64,000 nt of DNA from Candidatus Latescibacterota bacterium (lineage in GTDB: Bacteria > Latescibacterota > UBA2968 > GCA-2709665), in the NCBI GenBank assembly GCA_965248435.1, contig OZ252100.1, positions 4,914,102 to 4,978,101 on the forward strand, given 5' to 3'. The translations under genes were made by a program, and so were the position numbers. Numbering within the stretch: the stretch's first letter is position 1; each line of letters opens with the position of its first letter. The notes beneath the pieces are model-generated. The model saw only the letters and a list, made by a program, of their open reading frames with translations. It was not told the DNA's origin and did not search any database. Positions 18,816 to 62,165 of this stretch are shown in pieces.

Positions 18816-18919
18816 CTTCAGCGATCGAAACACGGGGTTTCTGGCCTTATCATCTGGCGCCATTTGGAAAACTGGGGCCTTCCCGGTCTGGAGACTGGTT
18901 GCCCTCTCCACACAACCCC

Positions 18920-19117
18920 ATGCCTCCGGCGGCCAACTTTTCTTGCTCGCCCAAGAAAAGTTGGACTAAAGAAAGGCGCCCCTCAGGCGCCGGGGAGGCT
19001 GACTTTTCCGCGAACCGTCCCAGTAGCCCTAGAGATGTTTGTGTCCTTGGATCTCTTGTGGTGTCCACAAACGGGAGTGCTTGACGGATAAGCGCGGAAA
19101 AGTCCCACCCCACCCCC
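18920..19117. repeat. R1 copy (modules B + C1)
   Basis: ATGCCTCCGGCGGCC. Hairpin aacttttcttg/caagaaaagtt. Module C1 ends in 'aagcgcggaaaagtcccaccccacccc'. Confidence 0.7.
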
Positions 19118-19229
19118 AAACCGGTGGTCAGCCTTGCCGTTCTTGGTCTGGAATCACCCAAGCGAGAAGGCCGGCTAACATCTTGCGAACGTGGAATCGG
19201 GTCCTTATTTTAGAACCAGATAAAGAACC

Positions 19230-20702: not shown

Positions 20703-22247
20703 GTGGCATCACACCCTTTGCTCTTCTACAATAACGACGGCAGTCATATGCTCTACCTCTCGCCTCCAGTTTCACTGGACGAGTTCGTGTATGAGACGGT
20801 CGGGTATCTTTTGGGCACTCAGGTGGACGCGGTAGCCTGCCACATGTTCGGGTTCGGCGACGCCGTTCCACTTTTTCCGACGGAAGTACCTGGAGCCCAG
20901 GGTATCGAGCGATCTGAGGTCGAATGGGTGAGTGAGTGGCGCCAGGAGGAAATCATCCGCCTCCTGTTCGATCAGGGGGTCGACCCGTGGAAGGCCTCGC
21001 TGGAGGCCGCGCACAACGCCGGTATGGAGTTCTGGGCGGCCCTGAGGTTCAACGAGCTGCACGAAGGGCGCTTCCAGTGGAAGAGCGAGTTCCGCGTGAA
21101 CCATCCGGAATACGAGCTGGGCGGCCAATGTGCCGCCGACGGGCACGATCCGGAAGATCAATGCGTCGGGCTCAATTTTTCGATCCCTGAAGTACGCGCC
21201 CATCGCCTTGCGCTGATCGAGGAGGTCTGCTCGCGCTATGACGTGGACGGGTTCGAATGGGACTTCAACCGGGAGCCGGGACACCACTTTCCGGACTTGA
21301 AGGCGGGCGCGCCGATCCTGACGGCCTACGTGCGCGAGGCCAGGAAGGTGCTGGATGCCGTTGGCGACAAGCGGGGACGTCCCGTGGGGTTCGGCGTTCG
21401 AGTACCGGGCACGATCGAGGCGTGTCACCGAATTTCGGTCGAGATCGAAAACTGGATCAGCGAAGGCCTTGTGGACTATATCTGTCCGTCTCCCTACGCC
21501 GACACGTCCACAGACCTGCCGTTCGACGAGTTCGTGGCCCTGGCCGACGGGAAGGATTGCCGGATCTACGGCTGCCCGACCGAGATGTGCGGCCCGGGAC
21601 TCCACTGGCCCCCGCCGATCGAGACGCTGCGCGCGGGTGCGTGGAACGCCTGGCGCCAGGGTGTGGACGGGGTCTACATCTTCAACTATAACCATCCGAT
21701 CGTGAGCGACATGGATATGTCGGGTCTCTTTCGCGAACTCGGCAGCCCGGCAACGCTGGAATTCAGGGACAAAACCTACAGCGTGGCCGGAAGGAGAGGG
21801 CGGCCGGATGTCTTCAAAGAGAAGGTGCATCAGCTCCCACTGGCACTGGAGGAGCGGCCGACCGGTCCGGGCCAGACAGTGCGCTTTCTCGTGGGCGACG
21901 ATCTGGAAACCGCGGCCGAGCGGGGTGTGCTGGACGCGGTGACGCTGGAGCTGATCGTCATCGGCAAGACGTATGAGGATGTGGTGGAGTTCAAGCTGAA
22001 TGGAAGGCCGCTGCCTGAAGGCCCCCAGTTCAGGATGTATGAAAAGTACAAGATGGGTCTCGGCTCCAACGCCTTCCAGGGCCGATACGCGCTGAGGTAT
22101 GACCTGAGATCGGGGGACTGGATCAAGCAGGGGTGGAACGAGGTCGAAGTGGCGTTGAGAAAGAGGACGCGTCGGGTGAGGCAGCCGTTCGAGGTCTACG
22201 AAATGAACCTGGAGGTCAAGTATCGGGTATTGCCGATGCGGGCTTAG
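20703..22247 (+). CDS. TIM-barrel glycoside-hydrolase-like protein, paralog 1
   Basis: 514 aa. About 85% identical to the protein at 23777..25339. 'HPEYELGG' and 'FEWDFNREPGHHF' suggest a glycosyl-hydrolase-like (beta/alpha)8 fold. Confidence 0.5.
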   Translation: MASHPLLFYNNDGSHMLYLSPPVSLDEFVYETVGYLLGTQVDAVACHMFGFGDAVPLFPTEVPGAQGIERSEVEWVSEWRQEEIIRLLFDQGVDPWKASLEAAHNAGMEFWAALRFNELHEGRFQWKSEFRVNHPEYELGGQCAADGHDPEDQCVGLNFSIPEVRAHRLALIEEVCSRYDVDGFEWDFNREPGHHFPDLKAGAPILTAYVREARKVLDAVGDKRGRPVGFGVRVPGTIEACHRISVEIENWISEGLVDYICPSPYADTSTDLPFDEFVALADGKDCRIYGCPTEMCGPGLHWPPPIETLRAGAWNAWRQGVDGVYIFNYNHPIVSDMDMSGLFRELGSPATLEFRDKTYSVAGRRGRPDVFKEKVHQLPLALEERPTGPGQTVRFLVGDDLETAAERGVLDAVTLELIVIGKTYEDVVEFKLNGRPLPEGPQFRMYEKYKMGLGSNAFQGRYALRYDLRSGDWIKQGWNEVEVALRKRTRRVRQPFEVYEMNLEVKYRVLPMRA

Positions 22248-23776: not shown

Positions 23777-25339
23777 GTGGCATCACATCCCAGACTCTTC
23801 TACAACAACGACGGCAGTCACCTGATCTACCTCCCGCCTCCAGTTTCGCTCGACGCGTTCGTATATGAGACGGTAGGTTATCTGTTCGGCACCCAGGTGG
23901 ATGCGGTGGTCTGCCACATGTTCGGGTTCGGCGACGCCATTCCGCTTTTCCCGACCGAGGTGCCGGAGGCGAAGGGTATCGAGCTGGACCAGGTGGAATG
24001 GGTGAGTGAGTGGCGGCAGCAGGAGATTATGCGCCTTCTGTTCGATCAGGGGATCGACCCGTGGAAGGCCTCCCTGGAGGCCGCGCACGAGGCGGGCATG
24101 GAGTTCTGGGCGGGCCTGAGGTTCAACGACCTGCACGGAGGGCGGTTTCAGTGGAAGAGTGAATTCCGCGTGAACCACCCCGAATACGAACTGGGTAACC
24201 AGTGTCCGGCCGGGTCGCACCAGAGTGATCCAGAACGACCGTGTCACGGGCTCAACTTCGCTGTCCCTGAAGTGCGGGTCCACCGCCTGGCGCAGGTGGA
24301 GGAGGTCTGCACCCGTTATGATGTGGACGGGTTCGAGTGGGACCTGAATCGGCACCCGGGACACCACTTTCCGGACATGGAGGCGGGTGCGCCGATGCTC
24401 ACCGCCTACATACGTGAAGCGAAGGAGATGCTGAACGGCGTCGGAGATCGGCGGGGACGCCCCGTAAAGTTCAGCGTGCGCGTGCCGGGTACTGTTGAGG
24501 CCTGTCGCTGGATCGCGGTCGAAATCGAGACGTGGATTCGGGAAGGCCTTGTGGATTACGTATCTCCATCTGCCTACCACGACACGTCGACCGATCTGCC
24601 GTTCGACCATTTCGTTGCTCTGGCTGACGGAAAGGACGTCAGGATCTACGCGTCGCCTGGCGAGATGGTCGGGCCGGGACTCCACTGGCCCCCGCCGATC
24701 GAGACACTGCGCGCGGGCGCGTTCAACGCCTGGCAGCAGGGCGTGGATGGGGTCTACATCTTCAACTACAACCATCCGATCGTGAGCGACATGGATATGT
24801 CGGGTCTCTTTCGCGAACTCGGCAGCCCGGCAACACTCGAGTGGAGGGATAAACGGTATACCGTGGCTGGAGGGCATTCCGAGCTGAGGGGCGATTCCTA
24901 CGGTTTCAAATCGTGGAAACATCAACTTCCCGCGGCCCTGGAGGAACAGCCCACCGGTCCGGGCCACACCGTGCGCTTCCTCGTAGGCGACGATCTGCGG
25001 ACCGCGGCCGAGCGAGGCGTACTGGACGCGGTGACTCTGGAGCTGATCGTCATCGGCCAAACGTATGAAGATGTGGTGGAGTTCAAGCTGAATGGAAAGC
25101 CGCTGCCCGAAGGCCCCCAGTTCAGAATGTATCAAAAGTACAAGATGGGTCCCGGCGCGAACGCCTTCCAGGGCCGATACGCGCTGAGGTATGACCTGAG
25201 ATCGGGAGACTGGATCCGGCAGGGGTGGAACGAGGTCGAACTGGCGTTGAGAAAAAGGACGCGGCGGGTGAGGCAGCCGTTCGAGGTCTATGAGCTGAAC
25301 CTGGAGATCAAGTATCGCGTTCTGCCGATGAGACCTTAA
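23777..25339 (+). CDS. TIM-barrel glycoside-hydrolase-like protein, paralog 2
   Basis: 520 aa, collinear with paralog 1. Followed by the same heptamer repeat. Confidence 0.5.
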   Translation: MASHPRLFYNNDGSHLIYLPPPVSLDAFVYETVGYLFGTQVDAVVCHMFGFGDAIPLFPTEVPEAKGIELDQVEWVSEWRQQEIMRLLFDQGIDPWKASLEAAHEAGMEFWAGLRFNDLHGGRFQWKSEFRVNHPEYELGNQCPAGSHQSDPERPCHGLNFAVPEVRVHRLAQVEEVCTRYDVDGFEWDLNRHPGHHFPDMEAGAPMLTAYIREAKEMLNGVGDRRGRPVKFSVRVPGTVEACRWIAVEIETWIREGLVDYVSPSAYHDTSTDLPFDHFVALADGKDVRIYASPGEMVGPGLHWPPPIETLRAGAFNAWQQGVDGVYIFNYNHPIVSDMDMSGLFRELGSPATLEWRDKRYTVAGGHSELRGDSYGFKSWKHQLPAALEEQPTGPGHTVRFLVGDDLRTAAERGVLDAVTLELIVIGQTYEDVVEFKLNGKPLPEGPQFRMYQKYKMGPGANAFQGRYALRYDLRSGDWIRQGWNEVELALRKRTRRVRQPFEVYELNLEIKYRVLPMRP

Positions 25340-29425: not shown

Positions 29426-30692
29426 AAAGAAACCCTTTCCCATCGCGTATGGCCGGGGCGAGCTCCCGCTTCGGATCGATCCTGAGCTCGCCAGGGCCTT
29501 GAGGCCGGTCTCCCGGCCGGCCCTTTTGAACGCCCAGGGGCGATTCCAGGAGGCCTGTCGGCATCCGGTAGAGACACCACCCCTTCGAGGGGTCGTCGGT
29601 CCTGGCGACCGGGTGGTGATCGTGACGTCTGACAAGACCCGCCCGGTCCCGAACCGGCTCCTGATTCCCTGGATCCTGGAGGAGATTCCCGTCCCCGACG
29701 ACAAGGTTACGGTGCTCCTCGGAAACGGGTCTCACGGCGCCAATTCTCCCGACGAGATTACGGAGATGTTTGGCGAGGCGGTGGCGGAGCGGGTGGAGAT
29801 ACGCAACCACGATGCCTTCGATCCGTCGCAGAACAGAAACGTCGGAAAGACGGGCGATGGGACCGAGGTCTGGATGGACAGGGTTTACTTGGAGGCGGAC
29901 AGGCGGATCGTCGTAGGATTTATCGAGCCGCACTTCTTCGCGGGGTTTTCAGGCGGTGGAAAAGGGGTCGTCCCTGGCGTGGCGGGTATCGATACGATCC
30001 TGTCGCTTCACCGCGCAGACCTGATCGCACATCCAAAGAGTACGTGGGGCGAGCTGGAAGGGAATCCTATTCAGAATGAAATTGCGGATGCCGTATCCCT
30101 CGCGCCGCCTGACTTTATGGTGAACGTCACACTCAACTCGGAGAAAGAGATCACCGAGTTCTTCGTCGGGGATTATCAGGCCGCCCATCGGCAGGGGTGT
30201 TCCTCGGTAAAGGCGTCGGCGATGGTTCCGGTGTCGGAACCGGTCCCGATCGTGGTGACGTCGAACGGCGGGTATCCACTCGATCTGAACCTGTATCAGA
30301 CGGTGAAGGGCATCTCCGCTGCCGACAGGATCGTGGAAAAGGGGGGGACGATTCTTGTGGCGAGCGAATGCAGCGACGGGGTCCCGGATCACGGCAATTT
30401 CGCTGAATTGATGCGAAGCGGCACGTCCCCGAAGGAGGTGCTCCAGTGGGTCCACGCGCAGGATCGCCCCGTTCAGGACCAGTGGCAGGCGCAGATCCTG
30501 GCCGGCATCCTGGAAAGGGTCGAGGTGATCCTGTATTCAGGTCTGGCACCCGGGGAGGTCGAAGGGTGTAAGCTCGGCTCGACGGACGATCTGGAGGCAT
30601 GCCTCGACAGCCGACTGGCGCGCGCCGCGAATCCATCTGTCGCCGTTCTGCCCTACGGACCTCTGACCATACCCTACTTAGAGGGAAAGTAA
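29418..30692 (+). CDS. LarA-like nickel-pincer (NPN) cofactor-dependent racemase/epimerase (DUF2088 N-terminal domain)
   Basis: ATG at 29418 (MSKKKPFPIAYGRGELP) overlaps the upstream stop. LarA-like N-terminal domain with conserved His/Lys positions. Confidence 0.65.
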   Translation: MSKKKPFPIAYGRGELPLRIDPELARALRPVSRPALLNAQGRFQEACRHPVETPPLRGVVGPGDRVVIVTSDKTRPVPNRLLIPWILEEIPVPDDKVTVLLGNGSHGANSPDEITEMFGEAVAERVEIRNHDAFDPSQNRNVGKTGDGTEVWMDRVYLEADRRIVVGFIEPHFFAGFSGGGKGVVPGVAGIDTILSLHRADLIAHPKSTWGELEGNPIQNEIADAVSLAPPDFMVNVTLNSEKEITEFFVGDYQAAHRQGCSSVKASAMVPVSEPVPIVVTSNGGYPLDLNLYQTVKGISAADRIVEKGGTILVASECSDGVPDHGNFAELMRSGTSPKEVLQWVHAQDRPVQDQWQAQILAGILERVEVILYSGLAPGEVEGCKLGSTDDLEACLDSRLARAANPSVAVLPYGPLTIPYLEGK

Positions 30693-30715
30693 CGGCATCT
30701 GGAAATCGAGAAAAA

Positions 30716-30754
30716 CCCCGCACTTACACTAGGTAAGTGTGGGGTTTTTTTTAT
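30716..30754 (+). terminator. rho-independent terminator
   Basis: ccccgcacttacac-tagg-gtaagtgtgggg stem followed by T8, 24 nt after the LarA stop. Confidence 0.75.
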
Positions 30755-30769
30755 CAAGTAGGGACAAGT

Positions 30770-31011
30770 GGGTAGAAGTGGGCCTGGTTTTGGAAAGGTT
30801 TTTGGAAAGGTTTCTACTCAACGTAGTCAATGAGGTGATCGTAGCTTTGTGGGATCAGATGCCCGTAGAAGTCCTGAGTGATTGTAACGCTGGCGTGCCC
30901 AAGCCAAGCACTCACGATCTGGATACTCACCTTCCCCGAGGACAGAAGGTGGGCTGAAAACGTGTGACGAAGCATGTGCCAGTGTCCTTTCATCCCGCGC
31001 CGACGACACAC
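30770..31011 (-). pseudogene. tyrosine recombinase (phage-integrase type) C-terminal fragment
   Basis: Only box II and the catalytic tyrosine region remain ('WHMLRHTFSAHLL...LGHASVTITQDFYGHL'). No N-terminal domain. It abuts the IS3 remnant. Confidence 0.5.
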
Positions 31012-31039
31012 GGCCTTGAAGTGAATCGCTTTCCGGAGG

Positions 31040-31620
31040 CTCGTTTAGTTGAGTCCAGCCAGCATTGGCCGGGCTTCCTGCTCGTGGTAGTGTAGCCGTT
31101 CGAGCTCGACGGGTGGGATATCCCCGATGGGCCCCAGAGTCGTCTGTTGTTGAACCAGTCTACCCACTCGAGTGTCGCATATTCAACCTGATCGAGGTTC
31201 CGCCAGGGCCCTCGTCGACGAAGTCCACAATCACTTCGGTCGGCGGTCGAGCTCCGCCTGTGCGAAATAGGCCGACGCCTTGCGAAGGATCTCGTTCGCC
31301 CGCCGCAACTCTCGGTTCTCGCGCTGCAGTTCTTTGAGTTGCGCCCGTTCGCTGCTTGTCACGCCGCCTCGACGTCCCGTGTTCACCTCGGTCCGACGTA
31401 CCCACTTCCGGAGCGTCTCAGCCGCGCAGCCAATTTTGCCCGCGATCGAATAGATGGCCTCCCACTGGGAGGCGTGTTCGTCAGTGTGCTCGAACACCAT
31501 CCGAACCGCCCGTTCTCGAACCTCTGGAGAATACCTCTTCACGTTTGTCATGACTCTATCCTCTCAAGAAATAGAGTCTCCGTCAAGTCCGGGGCGATTC
31601 ACCGCGCGCACGGTTGTGTT
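31040..31620 (-). mobile_element. internally deleted IS3-family element (orfA plus the last ~55 codons of orfB)
   Basis: orfA at 31231..31551 is intact. Immediately downstream, a different frame encodes 'EYATLEWVDWFNNRRLWGPIGDIPPVELERLHYHEQEARPMLAGLN*', the conserved OrfB C-terminus. The DDE core is missing. Confidence 0.6.
31231..31551 (-). CDS. IS3-family transposase OrfA
   Basis: 106 aa, '[22 protein letters not shown]...'. HTH plus leucine zipper. Confidence 0.65.
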
Positions 31621-31633
31621 AAATGCCCGTACT

Positions 31634-32520
31634 CTATTTTGACTCACCAAGATGCATCAACGGCAGAGGCATGGGGCTGTCACTGTTGATGAAATACACC
31701 TTGGCTGCTGGATCTTTGGAGATGGCTTTAAGCGCTTCCAGCGCCTGGAGTTTGACGTAGTTAGGGTTCTTGCCGATGGCCGCGTTGATTTTCTCGATTT
31801 CGTAGGCCTGGACATCTGCCAGTACGCGGCGCTGGGCGGCCTGTTCTTCAGCTGCACCGCGTTCCGCCTTTGCTGCTGCTATTTTCTGTTGTTGCTCTGT
31901 GCGGAAACGCTCCAGTTCTGCCTTCTGCTTCTCAACTTCCTGTTCGCGCTCCTTTTTTGACTCAATCGCCTTTGTGATAAAGGGGGGTAGGGCAATATCG
32001 CGAAGGAGCACAGCCCCCACATCTATTCCCTCCGGACCCAGATAATCGCGCAGTCCTTCCAGCAGTGCAGTCTGCAAGGTGACCTGGGCTTGCTCAAGAA
32101 AGAAGTCCTCGGCGCGTTTGACCGCTTTGCCCTGTTCACGTATCAGGGAACGCAGCTTCGGGATGATATGCACTCTGACGACGTCTTCCGCGGTGCCGGT
32201 CTCCTTCAGGATGCGCGGGGCATCTTTGCGCATGAGACGATACTGCACGCTGACATCAATCTTGGTCTGTAACTGGTCCTGGCTGGGGACGCTTGCCCGC
32301 TCCAAATGGGTCTTCTGGCGTACGTCATACAGATGCCAGGCATAGAGCGGATTGACGGGAATATGCAACCCTGCCTCATAAGGCTTCGGCTTCACACTCC
32401 CGAACAGTGTCGCGACCGCTACATGCCCGCTGGAATGCTTTGGTAAAATTTGCTGCCAAAGAATAAGACAATGATCACTATCACGATTGTAACAATGAGA
32501 GACTTCGGGATCTGATCCAT
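31634..32520 (-). pseudogene. SPFH/band-7 (prohibitin/HflKC-like) membrane protein with a frameshift
   Basis: The ORF 31634..32395 lacks an N-terminus. Upstream, another frame encodes 'MMDQIPKSLIVTIVIVIIVLFFGSKFYQSIPAG' (TM anchor). Shifting one nucleotide near 32437 gives 'HVAVATLFGSVKPKPYEAGLHIP', a contiguous SPFH N-terminus. Confidence 0.55.
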
Positions 32521-32782
32521 CATTGTTTCCTCCTGAAAGGGTTAACGTGAATACCGACTCGAACCTTACCCAAAATACAAACTATCATATCAGGGTAGAA
32601 CCTGCAATGTAGGCAAACGCTGCCCGACCATCCACAAGTTCGATGACCTCTTCCAGGCAAGGCATCCGAAAGTGTTGGTTGCTGTAGTGGGACCGTGGAG
32701 AACTACGGGTAGAATTATAAAATCACGCCCACACAGCTTGCTGGGCTATAGGCCGCCGGCGCCTGAAACGGTCTCAGAACCG

Positions 32783-33007
32783 CTAGTCGCAACCGCATCC
32801 TAACTCTGGACGTGGATACATAGGTGGGGGCAGGTCACCCACCAGTTCCGAATTCTTGAGCGATTCAAATTGGCTGACTGGGCGAGCACCCACCTTTTCC
32901 CTGAAGGAAGCAACTTTTGGAGGCTCGTTCGACTCCGACAGAGCACCCATTGTCCCCGGGTCCATACAAAGATAATCAATACCACACAGAGACAAAACCT
33001 GTTCCAC
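32783..33007 (-). CDS. small hypothetical protein (74 aa, C-terminal CGCD)
   Basis: An ORF in a low-GC spacer of the island. No recognisable family. May be spurious. Confidence 0.15.
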   Translation of the reverse strand: MEQVLSLCGIDYLCMDPGTMGALSESNEPPKVASFREKVGARPVSQFESLKNSELVGDLPPPMYPRPELGCGCD

Positions 33008-33108
33008 ACCCTCCGGGCAAGTGATCCCCTCGTTTGGGAACGACGACGGGCGCTCAACATGTCAAATACACGCTGTGCCCTCTGTGGTTCTGCAGAATAT
33101 GTTGTGTC

Positions 33109-33771
33109 TTACTCCTCGAAGGGAAAGTAGTCGAGGACGTCGTACTCCCACACATTGGTGGGAAAGATTACGACCAGTTCGGCCAAGTCCTCGCCCAAGT
33201 TCTTGAATGAGTGGGGGACCATAGGAGGAATATTGACGATATAGGGGGCTTCCAATGTGAACACCGAATCGCCCAGCGCGTAAAGGATGGTCCCCTCCAA
33301 CAGGACGTGCGCTTCTTCCCCTACGTGCGTGTGCATCGGAGGTGCACCTCCGGGGGCCGTATAGGTGATGCCCACGGTCAGGTTCTGATAGCCGTGCCGC
33401 TGCCCTTCCATGACGTGCACATATTCGCCCGGCCCTGGGTTGATGACGACGAGTTCTTTCTTCTCAAGAGCAAACTCGCCCACCAATGTCATAGCCGGGG
33501 ACTTGAAGTCACCGGGGATCCTGCGGGTTTCGATAATGCCGTGGGGGTGATGTTGTGCATGCAACTGCTTTCTCGCTTCATCAATCGAGCTGATTAGTTC
33601 TCCGTGTGTGATCGTCTGTCCTAGCTTGGCGTCCTCGGGTGAATACGTAACAGTCGGTTCCGGTGGCAGCGTGGAGGATTTATCTTTCGCGTCGGACGGC
33701 TCTAAGTAAGCCAAGCCAACGATGCCTATGAGGATGAAGCTAACGACAATACGTGGTGTATACCTGTGCAT
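33109..33771 (-). CDS. secreted cupin-2 domain protein (cassette-like)
   Basis: Signal peptide 'MHRYTPRIVVSFILIGIVGLAYLEPSDA'. Cupin motifs 'HTHVGEEAHVLLEGT' and 'PPMVPHSFKN'. Confidence 0.55.
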   Translation of the reverse strand: MHRYTPRIVVSFILIGIVGLAYLEPSDAKDKSSTLPPEPTVTYSPEDAKLGQTITHGELISSIDEARKQLHAQHHPHGIIETRRIPGDFKSPAMTLVGEFALEKKELVVINPGPGEYVHVMEGQRHGYQNLTVGITYTAPGGAPPMHTHVGEEAHVLLEGTILYALGDSVFTLEAPYIVNIPPMVPHSFKNLGEDLAELVVIFPTNVWEYDVLDYFPFEE

Positions 33772-33821
33772 GGTACCCTCCCTTTAGGGTATGGTGAAAG
33801 CACGGTCCTGGACCGCAATGG

Positions 33822-33908
33822 CAGGTAACGTTCTCGGCACCCACGAACCCGCGCAGCGGGTTGGGCGGAAGCCCGAATGGGCTGAAGCCGTGGGTGCTCG
33901 TGTTAGCG
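33822..33908. other. attC-like recombination site E1 (imperfect palindrome TAAC...GTTA)
   Basis: gcaggTAACgttctcGGCACCCACGaacc...GTGGGTGCtcgtGTTAgcgg. Internal inverted repeat GGCACCCACG/CGTGGGTGC. Lies between the cupin and APH cassettes. Confidence 0.55.
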
Positions 33909-33940
33909 GATGTCGCCGACGGAGCTGGCCTGGGAGGCTA

Positions 33941-34846
33941 TTAGAGTTTCGGCATAGGCCATTCGGCGATTGGCCTTCCCGACCAGGTTGACCGACTGAA
34001 GAATCGTCCACCCGCACGGTTGATGGAGCCGAACCACGCCTGGATCGCAATTCCCCAGAAATGCTCAAAGGATCTATCCTTCAGATTCAGATCAGCACGG
34101 TCGTAATGCGACAGGACCTCATCTACGAACACCTCGCCGTACACCCAGAAACCATAGAAGTCCTTGGCCGGGTCAGTGATTTCGATGTCGCCCCAGTCTA
34201 TGATCCCGGTCAGCTTTCCTGAAGAAGGATCGTGGTAGATGTGCTTGTACCATAGATCATTGTGAGCCAGCACTGGTACGAATGCGTGATCAATGCTCTC
34301 ACTTCTTTCGATCCAGGAACCGAAGACATCCCGAACCTCTGGCTCAAGTTCGTCGGCCCGATCTGCGAAGACCTTCTTGGCCTCCGACCGGTAAAACAGG
34401 GACCTGTCGCCATCCACCACACCAACACTCCGAGCCTCCGAGACTGGATAACTGTGAAGTTCGTTGAGGAAGACGCCAAGCCTGCTTGCCGCTTCTGCCC
34501 TCCTGAATCTTGGTAGCCTGGAGAATCGCCAAGGTGAGAGCCGCGTTCCTTGAATTGCCTTATATCCAGCGAAATCCGACGCGCTGGGAATAAAGGTGTA
34601 ATCCGGAACTGGGATGCTATTAATCTCACGCCTGATGGCGCTGAGCACCGTCCGCTCCCGCGGAAGGCTCAGCCCTGTGTCCGCTACATCATTCAGAAAA
34701 CGAAAGGCAATCCCGTTGTCTAGCAGGATCATTACATGATCAGGGTATTTGTGGGTCTGAGCTCTCCGGTATTTTGACCACCTGAGTTTGGGGAACGAGT
34801 CCTTGATCCTCTGCAGATAGTAGTTTGTATCGTAGGGAGTCGTCAC
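33941..34846 (-). CDS. aminoglycoside phosphotransferase (APH) family kinase, cassette
   Basis: Brenner motif 'LAHNDLWYKHI' and 'IDWGDIEITDP'. Start set at the in-frame GTG at 34846. The listed ORF start at 34915 lies inside element E2. Confidence 0.6.
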   Translation of the reverse strand: MTTPYDTNYYLQRIKDSFPKLRWSKYRRAQTHKYPDHVMILLDNGIAFRFLNDVADTGLSLPRERTVLSAIRREINSIPVPDYTFIPSASDFAGYKAIQGTRLSPWRFSRLPRFRRAEAASRLGVFLNELHSYPVSEARSVGVVDGDRSLFYRSEAKKVFADRADELEPEVRDVFGSWIERSESIDHAFVPVLAHNDLWYKHIYHDPSSGKLTGIIDWGDIEITDPAKDFYGFWVYGEVFVDEVLSHYDRADLNLKDRSFEHFWGIAIQAWFGSINRAGGRFFSRSTWSGRPIAEWPMPKL

Positions 34847-34892
34847 GAGATCTCCAGGATCAAAGTGGACCCTAACACAAAGGCGGCGATTT

Positions 34893-34980
34893 CCGCTAAC
34901 GTTCTCGGCACCCACGAACCCGCCGCAGGGGGTTGGGCGAAGGCCGGATGGCCTGAGCCGTGCACGGTCGTGTTAGAGGC
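34893..34980. other. attC-like recombination site E2
   Basis: ccgcTAACgttctcGGCACCCACGaacc...CGTGcacggtcgtGTTAgagg. Same architecture as E1 and E3. Confidence 0.5.
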
Positions 34981-35024
34981 CGTGCGGCCCGGGGCAGGAA
35001 GGGGTTCTCAAGACCTGATCAAGA

Positions 35025-36482
35025 TTAAACCGACTCCGGACCAATCTCTATGGGCAAGCTAATCGTTACTGTCGTACCTTTTCCTACCTCGCTCTCCATC
35101 TTGATCCTCCCCTTGTGATCCTGGATAATCCTGTAGTCCGTAGACAATCCTAAACCCATTTTCACCCGAAGATCGGTGGCCTGAAAATCAACATCGAAGA
35201 TGCGTTCTAACTGCTCCGGTGGAATTCCCACGCCCGTGTCGCTGATCCGGACACAGACCTTGTCGTCCTCCTCAAAGGTGCTGACTCTTATTTCCCCAGT
35301 TTCCTCGATAGCCTGGAGCGCGTTCTTGAGCAGGTGCATGAAGACCTGGTTCAGTTGTCCGGGAGAACAGTAGATCGGCGGGATGTTCCCGTATTTCTTG
35401 ACCACGGTGATGTTTTCGCCTATCCGGTTTTGTAGCAGCGTCAGGGCGCTGTCGATCCCCGCGTGAAGGTCTACCACCTGGAACTCGGCTTCGTCCAGTC
35501 GTGCGAAATTTCGCAGACTGCCCACAATGCTGCTCAACCGTTCGGCACCGCTTGCCATCACCCGGTTGGCATCGGCTATTGCCTTGAACACCGATTGAAT
35601 GGTCCGATTATCTTTATACTCTCCGGGAAAGGTCATCTCCAGCGTTTGTTTCAGTTTACCTATAGCCCGTACCTGAGTATCGTGCATACTCGTAATAGCG
35701 CCAAGAGGCGTATTCATCTCGTGAGCCACACCGGCTATCAGACTACCCAGAGAGGCCATTTTCTCCTGCATGATAAGCTGACTCTGTGTCTCTTTGAGCT
35801 GATGCAGGGCATCTTCCAGGGCTCGGTTCTGTTCTTCCAGATACTGGAAATCGAGGGTTCGGAGATACGCCAGCGACAGCGCGTCGGTCCATTCCTCTAT
35901 TTTGATCAAGTGTTCTGGATCGGTTCCCCGGTGGCGAATCCCGATCCAACCGTACTCAAACGGCACGTTGGTAATAACCCATCCTTCACTCCCAAAAAAC
36001 GGCAGTTGTCGGTCGAAGCCCATCAGCTCGTGAAAAGGCTGCATTTCCGCTTTGTCCTCCTCCGAACTCCGCGCAATAGACCAGACCTTGCCCTCGCGCC
36101 ACTGACCCAGATCCTCCTCCCAATCAGCCGTAATGGGGACTTCCAATGCCGAAACGGTGGTTGTTTCGTCGATCTCCTTGAGTTCGGGAGAGGTCCACGA
36201 GATGCCATATTGCCGGGGATTTTCCAGGGCGGCGTACCACAGAATGCGGCCTTTGTCCTCGTCGACGAAGAAAAAGCCACACCCTGGTGCCTCTATATCC
36301 AGCCGCGAAAGCTCCTTGAACATCACCAGGATCACCTGGAGAAGGTCCTCCCTGGAACGCATGGACAGCACTTCGACCCGTATGCGTTCGATTGTTTTCT
36401 CCTGGGCTCGTTGTTGCCTAAGTTCGGCTAGTTCAATCCGGAGTTGCTCTTTGGACATCTCCATGTCTCTCATGCTAAACAA
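35025..36482 (-). CDS. cytoplasmic sensor histidine kinase (GAF-like N-terminus, HisKA, HATPase_c), cassette
   Basis: H-box 'AGVAHEMNTPL'. N, G1 and G2 boxes present ('LLKNAL', 'DTGVGI', 'GLGLS'). No TM segments. Confidence 0.75.
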   Translation of the reverse strand: MFSMRDMEMSKEQLRIELAELRQQRAQEKTIERIRVEVLSMRSREDLLQVILVMFKELSRLDIEAPGCGFFFVDEDKGRILWYAALENPRQYGISWTSPELKEIDETTTVSALEVPITADWEEDLGQWREGKVWSIARSSEEDKAEMQPFHELMGFDRQLPFFGSEGWVITNVPFEYGWIGIRHRGTDPEHLIKIEEWTDALSLAYLRTLDFQYLEEQNRALEDALHQLKETQSQLIMQEKMASLGSLIAGVAHEMNTPLGAITSMHDTQVRAIGKLKQTLEMTFPGEYKDNRTIQSVFKAIADANRVMASGAERLSSIVGSLRNFARLDEAEFQVVDLHAGIDSALTLLQNRIGENITVVKKYGNIPPIYCSPGQLNQVFMHLLKNALQAIEETGEIRVSTFEEDDKVCVRISDTGVGIPPEQLERIFDVDFQATDLRVKMGLGLSTDYRIIQDHKGRIKMESEVGKGTTVTISLPIEIGPESV

Positions 36483-36502
36483 CCTTGTTTTGGGCCGGAT
36501 GG

Positions 36503-36597
36503 CCTATAACGTTCCCGGCACCCACGAACCTGGCGAAGCCAGGTTGGGCGGAAGCCCGAATGGGCTGGAGCCGTGGGTGCTCGTGTTAACTGCAGTT
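36503..36597. other. attC-like recombination site E3
   Basis: ccTATAACgttcccGGCACCCACGaacc...GTGGGTGCtcgtGTTAACtgcagttgcgc. Confidence 0.55.
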
Positions 36598-36612
36598 GCG
36601 CAGACCGCTTTG

Positions 36613-37575
36613 TCAGATCTTCGCGATAATGGAATCTAAGTAATCGTCGAATCGACAAAACAGGACTTCCTGACCTGGGTCTTTTATGCCGTATTCAGTC
36701 CAAGGAGGATAAAATCCTGGCTTCGGAATCGCCCAATCCAGAATAGAATCTATCTCCCAGAATGAGTGATACAGGTAATGTGGAGCAGCGACCTTGTGGT
36801 ATTTCTCTCGGAAACTGCCTGCTATTTCGGGGCCGAACATCGTGGCAAGATTAATCTGACAATGAGCTACGTCCACGTTTGCGGGTCCCAGACAAGCGCC
36901 AACCCAATCGACGATCCCGGTCAGCTTTCCAGATACCCATAGGATGTTAACTGGATGGTAGTCGCGGTGGAGAAACACCTCGTCATAGGGAGGCGATTCT
37001 TCGAGTCTAATGTTGATTGCCTTCTCCCAAAGTTCAGATCGTTTCGACCAAGGTGGTACACAAAGTGTCTCGACTTCGGTATAGCTCTGGTAGTGCCATC
37101 TTACACCATAAACCGCGATACTATGAATAGTCGCCAAGGTCTCCGCTAGTTGGTCGAGCCAATGGTCCAAATTGGCCGGCTTTATGTTCACAGTTCCATC
37201 CAAACAGCTCATTAGAAGAGCGGGGTATCCGAAAACCGAAGTGTCTGCACTGTAATCGAGCAGATGAGGCGTTGGAAGGTCGGCAGAACTCAGCAATCGA
37301 AGCGCAGCCGCCTCCCGCACGATTGGATCTGGCTCCCTACCAAGCCGTTCCTCATCCACATAGAGACGTAATACATACCTTCTAGATTCACCTGCGACAT
37401 CTGCTTCCAGCAAGAAAACGGGTGAAGCGGGTCCGCAGATCAGTCTTTTGCTACTGGTCAATTTCGCGCTAGCGCCAATTGCTGAACTGATCCAGTCAGT
37501 AGCCGCACTATTGAGAATGAGTTCCGAACTCACAGCGACTCCAGAATCAAATAAGAAGGGGTTAGGGCTGCGCAA
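36613..37575 (-). CDS. APH-family phosphotransferase, cassette
   Basis: 'FLHRDYHPVNILW' and 'GIVDW' catalytic and Mg-binding motifs of the APH/choline-kinase fold. Confidence 0.6.
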   Translation of the reverse strand: MRSPNPFLFDSGVAVSSELILNSAATDWISSAIGASAKLTSSKRLICGPASPVFLLEADVAGESRRYVLRLYVDEERLGREPDPIVREAAALRLLSSADLPTPHLLDYSADTSVFGYPALLMSCLDGTVNIKPANLDHWLDQLAETLATIHSIAVYGVRWHYQSYTEVETLCVPPWSKRSELWEKAINIRLEESPPYDEVFLHRDYHPVNILWVSGKLTGIVDWVGACLGPANVDVAHCQINLATMFGPEIAGSFREKYHKVAAPHYLYHSFWEIDSILDWAIPKPGFYPPWTEYGIKDPGQEVLFCRFDDYLDSIIAKI

Positions 37576-37674
37576 TTGCAGTTAACGGTCTAGGCACTTG
37601 CGAACCCCGGAGGGGTTTGCCGAGGGCCGTCAGGCCCGAGCCGCAAGTGCCTTGTTAACTGCTGTTGCGCCCGG
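37566..37674. other. attC-like recombination site E4
   Basis: GGGCTGCGCAATTGCAGTTAACggtctaGGCACTTGCGaacc...CGCAAGTGCCttGTTAACTGCTGTTGCGCCCGGG. The extended terminal palindrome matches the ends of E3 and E5. Confidence 0.55.
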
Positions 37675-37677
37675 GTG

Positions 37678-38541
37678 TCAATAGAGCCTCTTCACCTCTT
37701 GGAGTCGAGTCAGCACATGTCTCTCGTAGGCCGTTTTCAGTCGCAATGAATCCCACGGTTTCCCCCGTCTCTTGATAGAGTCCACGACTACCGAGCCAAA
37801 ACCGAATGCCATGTAGTAGGGGAGATCTGCGGCGTCTACGCCGAAGAACCTGAGATCTCTGAGCCGAGAAAATAGCCGAGACGCAGGCCAAATAGGATTG
37901 TGGAGCAGGACTCCCACTAGAATCTCCTTTGTGCCGAAAAAGGCTTGCTCAAAATCAATAAATCTGTGGATGGCCCCGTTTTTCAGGAACAGGTTCTCTG
38001 GATTCCAGTCCAGCTTGATCAGCAGGTCTTCTGAAATCTCAACCCTGGCCACCGAGTCGCAGATGTCCTGAAAAATCGGACCGCAATCTCCGACATCCTT
38101 TGCCAGACGAGATAGGTTGTCAATCAAGGTCCCGAGATTTTCCTCTGCCCCAATCCCTTCGTAGTATTCGCCTTTGAGTTCGAGAGTTGGCTCTGGCCCC
38201 CTGAACAGACTTATGAGTTCATCGACGTAGTTATCGGTCAACTCGAGTAGCTCATCAGAGGGAAGTGGGCTGATGTCGCTCATCCGATCTCCCTCTGCTC
38301 GTTCGATAACGATGTAGTCATTGACACTCAGATCAATGAGTTTGGGGATTAGCTTTGACTCTTTGTAATGAGACAAGAATCCTACTTCACGCCTGAATTT
38401 GCCTGCTCTTTCCCCGTTTCCGCTGTAAGTCTTCTTCACAGACTTTCCATCGGAGAGGAACTCGATTTGGCTCTTCCTGCCTTGAGGCGATTTATGCACG
38501 GCAGATTCTCGCTTCTTTAGAGTCTTTCCCAATGGGCGCAA
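37678..38541 (-). CDS. protein-kinase-like phosphotransferase (APH/Kdo-kinase-like), cassette
   Basis: 'IKLDWNPENLFLKNGAIHRFIDFEQAFF' contains a D..N catalytic loop and a DFE Mg-binding motif of the PKL fold. Confidence 0.5.
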   Translation of the reverse strand: MRPLGKTLKKRESAVHKSPQGRKSQIEFLSDGKSVKKTYSGNGERAGKFRREVGFLSHYKESKLIPKLIDLSVNDYIVIERAEGDRMSDISPLPSDELLELTDNYVDELISLFRGPEPTLELKGEYYEGIGAEENLGTLIDNLSRLAKDVGDCGPIFQDICDSVARVEISEDLLIKLDWNPENLFLKNGAIHRFIDFEQAFFGTKEILVGVLLHNPIWPASRLFSRLRDLRFFGVDAADLPYYMAFGFGSVVVDSIKRRGKPWDSLRLKTAYERHVLTRLQEVKRLY

Positions 38542-38695
38542 TTGCAGTTAACGTTCTTCAGGTTTACGACGCCTGCTGTCCCGAAGGGCTGGCGCGGCAT
38601 TTGCGCTTCTCACCAAATGACGTGACAGAAGCAGGTGTGCCCCAAGGGCCAAGCGGAACGAAGTGGAGCGCAGCGTAAACCTGGTGTTAACAGAT
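38536..38695. other. attC-like recombination site E5 (long variant, ~160 bp)
   Basis: GGGCGCAATTGCAGTTAACgttcttcaGGTTTACG...CGTAAACCtggtGTTAACagatg. Inner inverted repeat GTTTACG/CGTAAAC. Confidence 0.5.
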
Positions 38696-38936
38696 GGCAC
38701 GCGCCGGGGTGGTTGTGGGGGCGGGCCAGGACGGCCCGCGTAGGGGTGCTTTTTCTGATTTTGACTCCAAGTTTTTAAATAAAGCGTGCTGTCATCAACA
38801 TCGTTCTCTTTATGTTTTATCTTCCAATTTAACGTGCCGATAAGCGGCGGCGATTAGCCGTCCGCTCCACTGGCTAGTTCGCCTCGACCTTCGTCCACCT
38901 GAAGAGCTGTCGACAGCTGACCCGTGTGCTCCGCCT

Positions 38937-39995
38937 TCACCACTGCACGCGGAGGCGCGTCCAACGGATGCCGCAGACGTCGTCCTCTACGCACCAATGA
39001 ACGGCAAGCACGATGTTGTCCTCAAGCAAAAGGCCCATCGGATAGCCGAACTGAATGAGCCCGATCTGCTCCTGACTGCTGACGTCCTCGGTAAGCTCAA
39101 GCCTTGACCGACCGTCGAACAGGGTGCCTTCGAACTCAAGCGACCAGCACGCGCCCGACACTCGGACCAGGCACATCTGTACGCTCTGGTCACCGAAGCG
39201 TCTGTTGTACAGCACGAGATACCGATCGTCCCCGAGCCAGATCGGGGTCATTGTCTGACCCTGGATACCGGTAGGGTACGGTCCTTCCCAACTGCGGCCG
39301 CCGTCGGTCGATACGCTAAACGCGTTCCTCAGGTCAGTGTCTCCCGCGAAGTCCTGGACCCACGCAATGGCCAGCATTTGTCCCGGTTCCGTCTCGATCA
39401 GCTTCTGCTCCAGATACCCGATGCCGGTGCCGGGGTCCTGGAAGACAGTATACATGCTCGGCCAGGTCGCCCCCTGGTCGGACGATTCGTGCAGCACCAC
39501 GCGCTCCCCGTAACGCCCGTCGTATAATGTCGCGGCCGGAGCGAGCCAGCGTCCGTCAGCGGTGACGACAATCGGGTTCGAGATCTCATAGGGCCCCGCA
39601 ATCTGAAAGGGAATAACTTCGGGAAAGGACCACGTATGGCCGCCGTCCGTCGAGCGGCACAGCACGGGTTCACAGACGCGACCCCGTCCGCCGTCCGCGA
39701 TGCTCAGCTTCTGGTCGCGCTGGCCGTACGCGAGGATCGTTCCGTCCGCGGTGCGGCTGAGGCGCAGATGGTTGGTCTTCACCGGGCTCTCGTCCCGCTT
39801 GAGGACGACGCCCAGGTACGACCAGATGAAGCCCCCATCGGCAGAACGGGCGCAGTGCGTGTCGCCTTGCGCGTGAGCTCCGCCGCCGCGACTGAACCCG
39901 CAGACGATGTCGCCGCTATCTAACCGTACTAAGGTGGGAAACGCTGAGTCGCCGCGGTCGATGTGGCCGGTACCGAGAATCTCGATAGTGGACAT
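38937..39995 (-). CDS. BNR/Asp-box repeat sialidase-like beta-propeller protein, first cassette
   Basis: Three S-x-D-x-G-x-T-W Asp-boxes (STDGGHTW, SSDQGATW, STDGGRSW). Confidence 0.65.
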   Translation of the reverse strand: MSTIEILGTGHIDRGDSAFPTLVRLDSGDIVCGFSRGGGAHAQGDTHCARSADGGFIWSYLGVVLKRDESPVKTNHLRLSRTADGTILAYGQRDQKLSIADGGRGRVCEPVLCRSTDGGHTWSFPEVIPFQIAGPYEISNPIVVTADGRWLAPAATLYDGRYGERVVLHESSDQGATWPSMYTVFQDPGTGIGYLEQKLIETEPGQMLAIAWVQDFAGDTDLRNAFSVSTDGGRSWEGPYPTGIQGQTMTPIWLGDDRYLVLYNRRFGDQSVQMCLVRVSGACWSLEFEGTLFDGRSRLELTEDVSSQEQIGLIQFGYPMGLLLEDNIVLAVHWCVEDDVCGIRWTRLRVQW

Positions 39996-40099
39996 GGAAT
40001 CCTCCAGGCATCTGCGAACTATTTCCTATACGGAAAAATCGCCGAAGAAAGCTATCAATGGTTTTCTTGGCGGCCAGGACGGCCGCCGGTTGTGGTTTT

Positions 40100-40250
40100 G
40101 AATTTGATGCGTGCTTTCTGTTAACTTCTGCATTCGCGCCCCATCGGCGCAAATACCACCCGATAGGGCAAATAATGCGCACTGCGCAGATCCTGCCAAT
40201 AATATAGATAATGCGCCTTATTTCGTGAATGCTATTTATAGGAGACACCA
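40100..40250. other. candidate attI-like region, with a GTTAAC core at 40120-40125
   Basis: GTTAACTTCTGCATTCGCGCC resembles the 3' ends of E3 and E4 (GTTAACTGC(A/T)GTTGCGC). Lies between the intI remnant stop and the first cassette. Confidence 0.35.
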
Positions 40251-40251
40251 A

Positions 40252-40536
40252 TTAACCGGAACCTGTCTCCCTCTCCATCGGGTCGTCCAGGGGATTCCTA
40301 ATCTGGGCGAGGTCCCTCCGGGTCATGTGAGTATGGATTCCCGTCGTTTTTGAACTTTTGTGGCTCAGGAGCTCCTGGATGTATCGGAGGTCCGTGCCCC
40401 TTTCAAGAAGATGGGTCGCAAATGAGTGTCTGAGGGTGTGTACGGACACCGGCTTCTCAATACCGGCCCGTTTGTAAGCTTGGTCGAAGATTTTCTGCAC
40501 GGATTGGATCCATAAAAAAATACCGAATGCCTAAGC
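40252..40536 (-). pseudogene. intI: integron-integrase-like (IntI) tyrosine recombinase, 5'-truncated remnant
   Basis: The frame opens right after a stop at ~40536. It encodes '...[51 protein letters not shown]...QIRNPLDDP'. Box II, the catalytic tyrosine region and the C-terminal 'R(S/N)PLD' motif resemble the IntI 'GVRSPLD' ending I recall rather than XerC/D endings. Confidence 0.5.
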
Positions 40537-40854
40537 TCCCAGAGCCCGTGACATTCGGCTTATTTGTTGCCGGTCGAACGCCACAGGCTGCACTCATAGG
40601 CACCTACAAATTCCACGACCGCTACGGACTCCGATTCGGGTTCCGAAGTCACTACACGATGCGACCGGGGCCTTGCTCCTGAACCCGGATGGACGCATGT
40701 GGACAACTCAGAACTTGCAGACGGCGGCAGATTTTGTAACTTTGGAGCGAAGCCGCGCACGGAGGAAGAAGAGATGACGAAGGGGAAGAGGGCGCGGATC
40801 GCGGTCAAAAATAGATAGAAAACGGAATAATCCCTTACTTAGAGGAGAACTGAC

Positions 40855-53164: not shown

Positions 53165-53660
53165 GTCATGTATAAGGTAGGAGCCAGCTCCTGCTGGCGA
53201 ACCCCTGAATGGGGGATTCATATTCAAGGGGCATATCAAACGAGGATCACAAGGTTCACAAAATCATGCCTCCGGCGGCCTACCCTTCGGCAGGCTCAGG
53301 GCATGCTTTTCTTGCTCGCCCAAGAAAAGTTGGACAAAAGAAAGGCTCCCCTCAGCCCCTCGATACACCGATCGCTCCCAGAAGCGGTCGCGGTCGGCAC
53401 TCGGGGGCTATTTTTCCGCTGAACCGTCCCAGTGGCCTTAGAGAGATAAGTGTCCTTGGATCTTTTGCGGCCTCTAAGAACGAGGGTGCTTGACGGATAA
53501 GCGCGGAAAAGTCCCACCCCACCCCAAACAGGTGGGTTTCTTCGCGCCTTTCGTGCTTCTTCGTGTCCTTCGTGATCCAGCGTTTGCGATCCACGAACGA
53601 CGGCCTTAGCCTCCGGCGGCCATTGTATGCGTAGGAGCCAACTCCCGTTGGCGACGGGAA
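53165..53660. repeat. R1 copy (A + B + C1) plus a partial A-like fragment at ~53595-53660
   Basis: ggtaggagccagctcctgctggcgaacccctgaatgggg ... atgcctccggcggcc ... C1. Confidence 0.65.
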
Positions 53661-56419: not shown

Positions 56420-56735
56420 CCCTCCACCCCACAACCCCATGCCTCCGGCGTCCCGTCCGTCGGCTCGCCGTCTTCGATCACGAACTCGCCGTTGACGAAC
56501 ACGAAGTCGATGCCGACGGGCTTCTGAACGTTTGCTACCGGTACCCAACTTTTCTTGCTCGCCCAAGAAAAGTTGGGCAAAAGAAGGGCGCCCCTCAGGC
56601 GCCGGGGAGGCTGATTTTTCCACGAACTCTCAGTGGCCTTAGAGAGGTTTGTGTCCTTGGATCGTTTGTGACGTCCATAAACGAAGGTGCTTGACGGATA
56701 AGCGCGGAAAAATCCCACCCCTCCCCCCGAGGGAG
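56420..56735. repeat. R1 copy (amidohydrolase 3' fragment + B + C1)
   Basis: Same captured fragment as at 42.2 kb and 47.7 kb. On the minus strand it is in frame with the SDR gene, which creates an artefactual long ORF. Confidence 0.65.
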
Positions 56736-61499: not shown

Positions 61500-62165
61500 G
61501 GATCCGGTAGGAGCCAGCTCCTGCTGGCGAACCCCTGAATGGGGATTCATATTCAGGGGGCGTATCAAACGAGGATCACAAGGTTCACAAAACAATGCCT
61601 CCGGCGGCCAACTTTTCTTGCTCGCCCAAGAAAAGTTGGACAAAAGAAGGGCTCCCCTCAAGTGCCGGGGAGGCTGACTTTTCCGCGAACCGTCTCAGTG
61701 ACCCTAGAGATATTTGTGTCCTTGGATCTTTTGTGGTGTCCACAAACGGGAGTGCTTGACGGATAAGCGCGGAAAATTCCCACCCCACCCCACGAGCAGA
61801 GTGAATAAAATTGTATCCGGTAGGAGCCAGCTCCTGCTGGCGAACCCCTGAATGGGGATTCATATTCAAGGGGCGTATCAAACGAGGATCACAAGGTTCA
61901 CAAAACAATACCTCCGGCGGCCAACTTTTCTTGCTCGCCCAAGAAAAGTTGGACAAAAGAAGGGCGCCGCTCAAACGCCGCGGGGGCTGGGGCCGCGGCA
62001 CCTCACCCTCAGTGGAAAGGACGGTGGCGGCAATCAGGGCGGGACTCCTGCCCCTCCTGACGCCCACTATGGGACCGGCCCAGAGGGCCTAACCGCGTGG
62101 GAGGTGAAAGAACGAGGTTGCAAGGGAGTCGCACACCGCGGCCCTGATGGGTTTCAGTGATCCTT
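61500..62165. repeat. two tandem R1 copies (A-B-C1 then A-B-C2)
   Basis: Module A recurs at 61509 and 61820, about 95% identical. The two units differ only in the C module. Confidence 0.7.

Follow-up and report, generated by a model that had tools for sequence, protein, structure and literature searches.

A probable decayed integron platform on an integrative island in a Latescibacterota genome, with a recombinase remnant closest to an insertion-less sister clade of IntI

We analyzed 64,000 nt of contig OZ252100.1 (positions 4,914,102 to 4,978,101; assembly GCA_965248435.1, Candidatus Latescibacterota bacterium), hereafter the window, in which the remnant of a tyrosine recombinase gene stands at the head of an array of gene cassettes bounded by attC sites. 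We consider it probable that these sequences are a decayed integron-type platform with all its parts on one strand, that its integrase belonged to a clade lacking the additional domain of the canonical integron integrases (IntI), and that the platform rides on an integrative island, the integrase of which is likewise dead. As a find in the window, this decayed integron is of an ordinary kind; of more interest as a lead is the insertion-less integrase clade, intact members of which head long attC arrays in at least two phyla.

The proposed history is as follows. Site-specific recombination would have placed the island (30685-40845) within the final codons of a LarA gene. Its platform would have consisted, in order, of the recombinase gene, an attI-like site ~130 nt past the stop codon, and an array of at least six cassettes. 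The recombinase gene would then have become a pseudogene by losing its first 200-330 codons, including those of the active-site residues Arg I and Lys, and by exchange of the nucleophilic Tyr for His, and a now-remnant IS3 element would have cut the distal end of the array and truncated the island's own phage-type integrase. Because the recombinase is dead and the distal end is cut, cassette insertion and excision in cis would no longer be possible, and the array would be frozen unless a related recombinase serves in trans. The sequences show the anatomy of the locus, the truncation, the boundary of the first cassette, the borders of the island and the clade in which the remnant is placed; we infer that the array had the insertion-less recombinase type as its cognate enzyme and that the second, phage-type integrase moved the island.

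Remnant, attI-like region and cassette array

The platform comprises the following features:
40252..40533, minus strand: integron-like tyrosine recombinase pseudogene, C-terminal ~85-92 codons (open reading frame [ORF], profile matches, tblastn)
40120..40251, minus strand: attI-like region, from the remnant stop codon to the first cassette (sequence comparison, promoter matches)
38546..40124, minus strand: cassette 1, BNR_2 (sialidase-like) gene 38937-39995 and long attC1 38546-38694
37574..38545, minus strand: cassette 2, 287-aa ORF 37678-38541 without a Pfam match and attC2 37574-37668
36498..37580, minus strand: cassette 3, APH-family phosphotransferase gene 36613-37575 and attC3 36498-36599
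34888..36505, minus strand: cassette 4, histidine kinase gene 35025-36482 and attC4 34888-34986
33817..34895, minus strand: cassette 5, APH-family gene 33941-34915 and attC5 33817-33916
31603..33825, minus strand: last unit, cupin gene 33109-33771, ~560 nt of non-coding sequence and a frameshifted SPFH gene ~31634-32522

The remnant frame opens after a TAG at 40531-40533 and closes at a TAA at 40252-40254, and its homologous part, as delimited by tblastn, spans 40255-40524. It matches positions 108-169 of the 172 of Pfam PF00589 (E = 4e-18) and the last ~75 positions of all Xer and IntI models of NCBIfam. Since tblastn with ten full-length homologues found no N-terminal recombinase part in the window, and since the neighboring gene on the plus strand (DUF6772) begins at 40855, the 5' deletion is real; the initial annotation had put it at ~220 codons, and 200-330 are missing, depending on which relative is compared. 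Arg I and Lys of the active site are deleted, whereas the H-x-x-R motif and the second His are kept. In the alignment with VchIntIA, the catalytic Tyr is replaced by His (TTGIHTH vs. KTTQIYTH, that is, IYTH to IHTH) and LGH reads LSH. With Arg I and Lys deleted and its Tyr replaced, the remnant has no intact R-K-H-R-H-Y set, which bears out its earlier description as an inactive tyrosine recombinase.

A hairpin previously placed at ~40522-40560 does occur there (ACCGAATG at 40522-40529 pairing with CATTCGGC at 40552-40559), but its spacer measures 22 nt rather than 24, and it is marginal (dG −10.4 kcal/mol, z −2.0; 5 of 200 shuffles fold equally well). A T-run follows it on the minus strand. 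The sequence 5' of the truncation point (40536-40700) was considered as an attC remnant and rejected, because shuffled sequences fold as well. The motif CTTAGGC, at the point of truncation, is an unsupported hint of a secondary-site junction.

An attC-type element follows each gene from 39995 down to 31634 on the minus strand. Five attC sites are complete, all on the minus strand; the IS3 remnant cuts a sixth, leaving just its R''-L'' half (TTAACACAACCGTGCGCGCGG, ~31603-31625). These genes thus form an array of attC-bounded cassettes with one polarity, and the remnant lies upstream of them on the same strand, as had been proposed. Four of the five complete sites fold well beyond shuffles (z −4.1 to −7.4) into a hairpin of R-box, unpaired spacer and L-box with a branched tip; attC4, whose L'' and L' boxes are mismatched, folds no better than shuffles (z −0.6). 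The L'' box type of attC4 (CACGACCGTGCACGG) differs from its L' and resembles the truncated attC at 31603-31625; attC4 may have arisen as a hybrid when two types of attC recombined homologously.

The four shorter attC sites align well, and 6 of 21 pairs show compensatory changes. The covariance model trained on these four sites (R1) scores them at 91-106 bits on the minus strand and at most 16 bits on the plus strand; it finds nothing comparable elsewhere in the window and also misses the long attC1. A hand-written attC detector recovered attC1, attC2, attC5 and attC4 (with R' shifted) and missed attC3, giving one likely false match in the window (15752-15816). A relaxed version was dropped, as it returned ~2 matches per 20 kb in control loci.

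Some details within the cassettes deserve mention. Cassette 1 contains two similar GC-rich hairpins with a common GTCCT loop, one in its 5' leader (~40067-40089, GGCGGCC-GTCCT-GGCCGCC) and one before attC1 (~38725-38745, GCGGGCC-GTCCT-GGCCCGC), with a CCACAACC motif near each. An Rfam scan of the whole window at gathering thresholds gave no match. In the last unit, the SPFH/Band-7 gene is apparently frameshifted at ~32395-32525 (minus strand): a short ORF for the N-terminal membrane helix stops at ...IPAGM*, and the SPFH domain resumes in another frame (HVAVATLFG...). No attC was detectable in the ~560 nt of non-coding sequence between the cupin and SPFH genes.

The crossover core GTTAAC lies at 40120-40125, ~130 nt past the remnant stop codon. 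Window positions 38549-40138 match positions 2247-3835 of an unrelated 19.8-kb contig (L086) at 98% identity, and the match is limited by R' of attC1 on one side and by a point 13 nt beyond GTTAAC on the other. Because cassette 1 recurs in L086 and the match ends there, GTTAAC is a true cassette boundary, and its earlier identification as a candidate attI core downstream of the stop codon is upheld. The ~130 nt upstream of GTTAAC are ~58% identical to L086, with the blocks CTATARRTAGCATTCACGAA and AATGCAGNAGTTAAC shared. Conserved blocks of the region itself are CTATAAATAGCATTCACGAA and AATGCAGAAGTTAAC, and two sigma-70-like promoter matches (40229 to 40201 and 40199 to 40172) point toward the cassettes. 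A similar block trails the homologous remnant in a 5.46-Mb genome (L171). The segment 40126-40250 was also tried as an attC and rejected, its R''/R' pairing being absent and its fold reaching a z of only ~−2. By these comparisons, 40120-40251 reads as an attI-like region, a putative attI beside the integrase gene at which cassettes would enter at G|TT. On L086 (1168-1225, 1950-1995 and 2140-2265), the attI-like block stands in mid-array; upstream of it lies a classical attC, as does the 3' fragment of a tRNA gene flanked by TTGTTAGAAAA repeats. attI modules thus seem to be shuffled into arrays.

Only two recombinase pieces were found by tblastn in the 64 kb, both C-terminal: the remnant at 40255-40524 and a weaker one at 30817-31020. 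With at least two attC sites and no functional integron integrase within 64 kb, the array corresponds to a cluster of attC sites lacking integron integrase (CALIN; Cury et al. 2016, PMC4889954), in agreement with its earlier reading as a CALIN-like frozen array.

Related loci and the family of the recombinase

Relatives of the remnant were collected by an exhaustive search of representative proteins and a scan of genome contigs, with one genome per species; a word-indexed protein search yielded only short fragments of 76-161 aa, unsuitable for obtaining full-length relatives. The strict attC detector was run on all loci. Its background was 3 isolated matches in 546 kb around 80 metagenome relatives, and in the control loci L081-L090 it matched at the attC sites of L086 only; because it is nearly silent in both sets, the arrays described below are not chance findings.

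Two intact enzymes head such arrays. In an Ignavibacteriota metagenome-assembled genome (MAG; L001), an insertion-less recombinase of 290-316 aa is followed by GTTAGCC ~25 nt past the end of the ORF and then, on the same strand, by at least 10 homogeneous attC sites of ~130 nt over 10 kb. In a Gemmatimonadaceae MAG (L006), GTTATGT lies ~170 nt past the stop codon of a 420-aa insertion-less enzyme, followed by a toxin-antitoxin pair and at least eight attC sites of ~158 nt. Both enzymes have all catalytic residues, and no other tyrosine recombinase was found within 10 kb of either. Two Bacteroidales contigs (L004 and L021) carry one attC each, 1-1.6 kb downstream of the recombinase and before the contig end. 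In L171, a remnant 69% identical to that of the window, tail included, is truncated and frameshifted at a different point, and 10 attC sites of the window's own family lie on the remnant strand (26-59 bits with R1).

The same searches turned up a few further features of these loci. L171 has two remnants of the same recombinase type in one array (7347-7469 and 9899-10267), 2.5 kb apart, and a transposase gene inserted there is surrounded by several palindromic CCTGCCTGCGC...GCAGGCAGG repeats. In L172 (1-6385), seven tyrosine recombinase genes stand in a row, including two tandem sets of three in the style of recombinase-in-trio elements; this row adjoins a resolvase and a transposase, and downstream of it comes a fragment of 145 aa with 74% identity to the remnant. 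No convincing attC was found at L173-type loci, where a frameshifted relative is followed by a toxin-antitoxin pair.

The recurring layout bears on a first alternative, namely, that the remnant has nothing to do with the cassettes and is debris of a Xer-like or mobile-element integrase beside a CALIN, for example one that targeted attI- or attC-like sites or the island end. In its favor, attC arrays are missing from the surroundings of most insertion-less members, no more than ~300 bp separate the remnant from the right end of the island, the related fragment in L172 sits beside a transposase among many recombinase genes, and most CALINs are reported to lack a recognisable intI pseudogene (Cury et al. 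2016, PMC4889954). Against this, the succession of recombinase 3' end, 25-170 nt, GTTA core and attC array recurs on one strand in the window, L001, L006 and L171, across different phyla and attC families. The conserved block lies directly past the stop codon in both the window and L171, and before the same cassette in L086, and the rarity of strict-detector matches (three isolated ones in 546 kb, and attC at L086 alone among L081-L090) speaks the same way. We therefore regard unrelated debris as unlikely and retain the integron-type platform.

The full-length relatives fall into two sharply distinct classes, with and without the IntI-specific insertion. The 28 loci closest to the remnant (55-72% identity) all lack this insertion of ~45 residues: the spacing from GKGxKxR to HxLRH is ~66 residues in the insertion-less class vs. 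107 in IntI, and the KYP...WxW motif is absent. Insertion-bearing IntI turn up only at 57% identity or less. The earlier suggestion to look for full-length homologues with the IntI extra domain was therefore answered in part: the closest full-length relatives lack that domain, and those that bear it are more distant. The insertion-less clade carries PF13495 and PF00589, and its nearest NCBIfam models are TIGR02249 (integron integrase) and NF040815. Its members score 184-250 bits on TIGR02249 (L001, 250 bits; L006, 224 bits), below the 265-bit cutoff, and skip model positions ~178-234, whereas the bona fide IntI of L054 and L076 score 466-467 bits.

In a neighbor-joining (NJ) tree of the C-terminal part (78 alignable residues), the nearest neighbors of the remnant are L002 (Gemmatimonadota) and L001 (Ignavibacteriota), and its local clade is free of any IntI-type sequence in 95 of 100 bootstraps. 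In the full-length tree, the insertion-bearing IntI are monophyletic, with L001, L002, L003, L006, L010, L028 and L046 as their immediate sister group. The remnant is thus placed outside the monophyletic IntI clade, on 78 residues of limited resolution. Its residue signature (TDLRYIQ, SSKTT, xLxxIRxPLD) is that of the insertion-less class and not that of IntI (YDIRTIQ, DVSTT, GGxGVxSPLD). These comparisons make it probable that the recombinase belonged to the insertion-less sister clade rather than to canonical IntI.

These results do not support the initial annotation on the following points. It had assigned the remnant to the IntI clade and named phylogeny as the refuting test; the C-terminal tree puts the remnant outside IntI. 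It had called the arrangement Treponema-type, whereas the nearest neighbors have no IntI insertion (the compared set contains no Treponema IntI). It had also named as refuting a finding that RNPLD-like endings are common in unrelated phage integrases; R(S/N)PLD is carried by the insertion-less class and IntI alike and is therefore not diagnostic of IntI.

The evidence for a canonical IntI deserves to be set out. Among solved structures, the best match of the remnant is VchIntIA (2a3v; 65 bits, vs. 53 for XerA and 46 for XerD), and its top NCBIfam model is TIGR02249 (90 bits, vs. 85 for XerD), which it covers at positions 240-313 only and below the curated 265-bit cutoff. Furthermore, same-strand downstream arrays exist with canonical IntI, for example those of L054 and L076, and the context of the remnant is an attC array. 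The fragment could then be the 3' end of a canonical IntI with the additional domain, in an inverted, Treponema-like arrangement, its similarity to insertion-less enzymes being noise in a short conserved C-terminus. TIGR02249, however, is non-discriminating, as insertion-less relatives also score best or near-best there; identity is 48-57% to the 34 insertion-bearing IntI but 67-72% to L001 and L002; and both the signature residues and the bootstrapped clade side with the insertion-less group. We judge a canonical IntI improbable and prefer an insertion-less integrase.

Finally, the 82-codon ORF that begins with a GTG at 40500, as predicted by gene callers (P0001), might be no pseudogene but encode a small protein that still functions, for instance in regulation or DNA binding. 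For this one could cite the uninterrupted L171 ORF of similar extent and tail (69% amino-acid vs. 67% nucleotide identity), but it is very hard to credit: the core-binding domain and half of the catalytic fold are gone (Arg I and Lys included), the nucleophile is mutated, the truncation points of the window and L171 differ, with a frameshift in L171 besides, and evidence of a promoter or ribosome-binding site was not found. The high ratio of amino-acid to nucleotide identity is better accounted for if genes functional until lately were truncated recently and independently.

As an aside on the relatives, many insertion-less members (L002, L004, L005, L006 and L021) have an N-terminal extension of ~100-140 residues with the conserved motif (I/V)K(T/S)(I/L)PGxxWxPxxKxWxxP, which matches no Pfam model; L001 is without it.

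The island and its borders

The island adds the following features:
30669..30684: left direct-repeat copy, core CCCTACTTAGAGG at 30672-30684, in the last LarA codons
30817..31020, minus strand: second tyrosine recombinase fragment, phage-integrase type, last 68 residues, just inside the left junction
31023..31602, minus strand: IS3-family remnant with OrfA (HTH_Tnp_1) at 31237-31551, most of OrfB deleted, ends TGAATCGC
40534..40829, no strand: right-end island sequence, without a homologue in the fetched loci or the plasmid collection
40830..40845: right direct-repeat copy, core CCCTTACTTAGAGG at 40832-40845, 10 nt before the DUF6772 start at 40855

The integron segment, ~30685-40845 (~10.2 kb), is absent from six related genomes (L081-L085 and L179). 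In L081-L085 (80-87% nucleotide identity) the two flanking genes adjoin, and in the closer relative L179 (87-90% identity) the LarA gene runs straight into the DUF6772 gene. Because the flanks adjoin in relatives and a 16-nt stretch of L179 corresponds to window 30669-30684 as well as to 40830-40845, the segment is most likely an insertion. An imperfect direct repeat of 14-16 bp, CCCT(T)ACTTAGAGG, brackets it, and the element has rebuilt the 3' end of LarA (TIPYLEGK* vs. TIPYLEEN*). The segment thus has what characterizes an integrative island: direct repeats, an empty site in relatives, and an integrase at one junction. The initial annotation had recognized neither this ~10-kb island nor its direct repeats nor the second dead integrase.

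The IS3 remnant has an intact-looking OrfA and an OrfB reduced to its extreme C-terminus, and it cuts the last attC on one side and the second integrase fragment on the other, an arrangement such as adjacent deletions mediated by the insertion sequence (IS) would be expected to leave. After that integrase fragment come a tandem AACCTTTCCAAAA repeat (30790-30815) and a strong hairpin with a T-run (30711-30749). At the other end, the recombinase remnant lies ~300 bp inside the right junction. It had been suggested that 40540-40850 might match the end of a mobile element; a BLAST comparison of 40500-40850 with the window, every fetched locus and the plasmid collection returned nothing.

Several observations weigh against the proposed platform and its origin. 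The association with attC holds for only part of the insertion-less clade: no convincing arrays were found at L002, L010 and L028, nor any near 80 more distant metagenome relatives (3 isolated matches in 546 kb). The L171 remnant has attC sites on either side. The attI-like block of L086 stands mid-array with no recombinase, and the module of remnant plus attI may itself have moved around. For the clade placement, only ~78 residues of a mutated pseudogene could be aligned, and the NJ trees drew on the 80 database loci most similar to the remnant; the absence of the additional domain from the ancestor is judged from its relatives, the region of that domain being deleted in the remnant. In addition, the search for an intact recombinase copy covered 64 kb of a 5.66-Mb genome, and it is the direct repeat that would favor gain of the island here over its loss in relatives. 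At present, with these points counted, we still hold the decayed platform on an island to be the probable explanation.

Two features of the window stand apart from the island. Dispersed intergenic repeats of ~70-120 nt, 82-94% identical to L179 6776-7106, occur in at least 10 places and may be an element of this lineage resembling repetitive extragenic palindromes (REP) or miniature inverted-repeat transposable elements (MITE); their positions are:
~13079, 18917-19124, 49265, 53300-53525, 55223, 56545-56726, 61593-61791, 61906 and 63443-63726

The other is a pair of paralogous copies of a ~515-aa gene (20703-22247 and 23777-25339). Sister genomes have a single copy (79-85% identity); the pair is a duplication specific to this lineage, its two copies being separated by an inserted ~1.5 kb.

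Comparison with known systems

The window is one more example of how cassette arrays become stranded, through integrase truncation and IS insertion, and it suggests how stranded arrays might remain mobile, as passengers of an integrative island. The island resembles those inserted at gene 3' ends by tyrosine integrases in its 14-16 bp repeats, its replacement of the last codons, its integrase at the junction and the empty sites in relatives. It differs in that the target is LarA and not a tRNA gene, that an IS3 remnant truncates the integrase, and that the cargo is of integron type.

Compared with CALINs that have an integrase pseudogene nearby, the locus is alike in its attC array without a functional integrase, its adjoining recombinase pseudogene, its IS and its diverse, mostly non-resistance cassette genes. 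Unlike them, its pseudogene would escape the IntI-specific profile (the region is deleted here and missing from the relatives), an attI-like site is kept, and the whole unit lies on an integrative island with direct repeats of its own.

Inverted integrons, in which the integrase gene and the cassettes have the same orientation, are known from Treponema and other lineages (Cury et al. 2016, PMC4889954; Wu et al. 2013, PMC3607928). The window shares with them an integrase gene upstream of the cassettes on the same strand and an attI past the stop codon, but their integrases have the additional domain and score ~466 bits on TIGR02249, as judged from L054 and L076, the compared set holding no Treponema IntI, and the relatives with which the remnant groups are insertion-less and score 218-250 bits.

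On a broader and more tentative reading, which we rate as possible but somewhat short of an even chance, the insertion-less sister clade is the cognate integrase of same-strand cassette arrays in several phyla, jointly covering Ignavibacteriota (L001), Gemmatimonadaceae (L006), possibly the two Bacteroidales contigs, and the lineage of the window and L171. No report of arrays headed by insertion-less enzymes was found in the literature searched, where IntI is always defined by the additional domain. The additional (I2) domain is held to be indispensable for recognizing folded attC sites. Integron surveys define IntI by this domain and so count arrays headed by insertion-less relatives as integrase-less CALINs, whose abundance is an acknowledged puzzle (Cury et al. 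2016). If the broader reading is true, "integrons without an IntI" exist, some CALINs are complete or decayed integrons of a second type, and the I2 domain is either a later gain on an array-associated enzyme or dispensable. If enzymes of the L001/L006 type act on their neighboring attC sites, the definition of the integron would have to be widened, and the structural rule by which reading of the extrahelical bases requires the I2 helix would no longer hold without exception. There would also be a living, experimentally accessible intermediate on the path from Xer-like ancestors to IntI.

The closest description of such enzymes comes from Smyshlyaev, Bateman and Barabas (2021, PMC8138268), whose integron-like subgroup of simple tyrosine recombinases has an insertion that is "not fully conserved"; the insertion-less clade fits this description. 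The same study regards the insertion as essential if an integron is to function (PMC8138268); here, unlike in that description, two intact members and two remnants of the insertion-less type head arrays.

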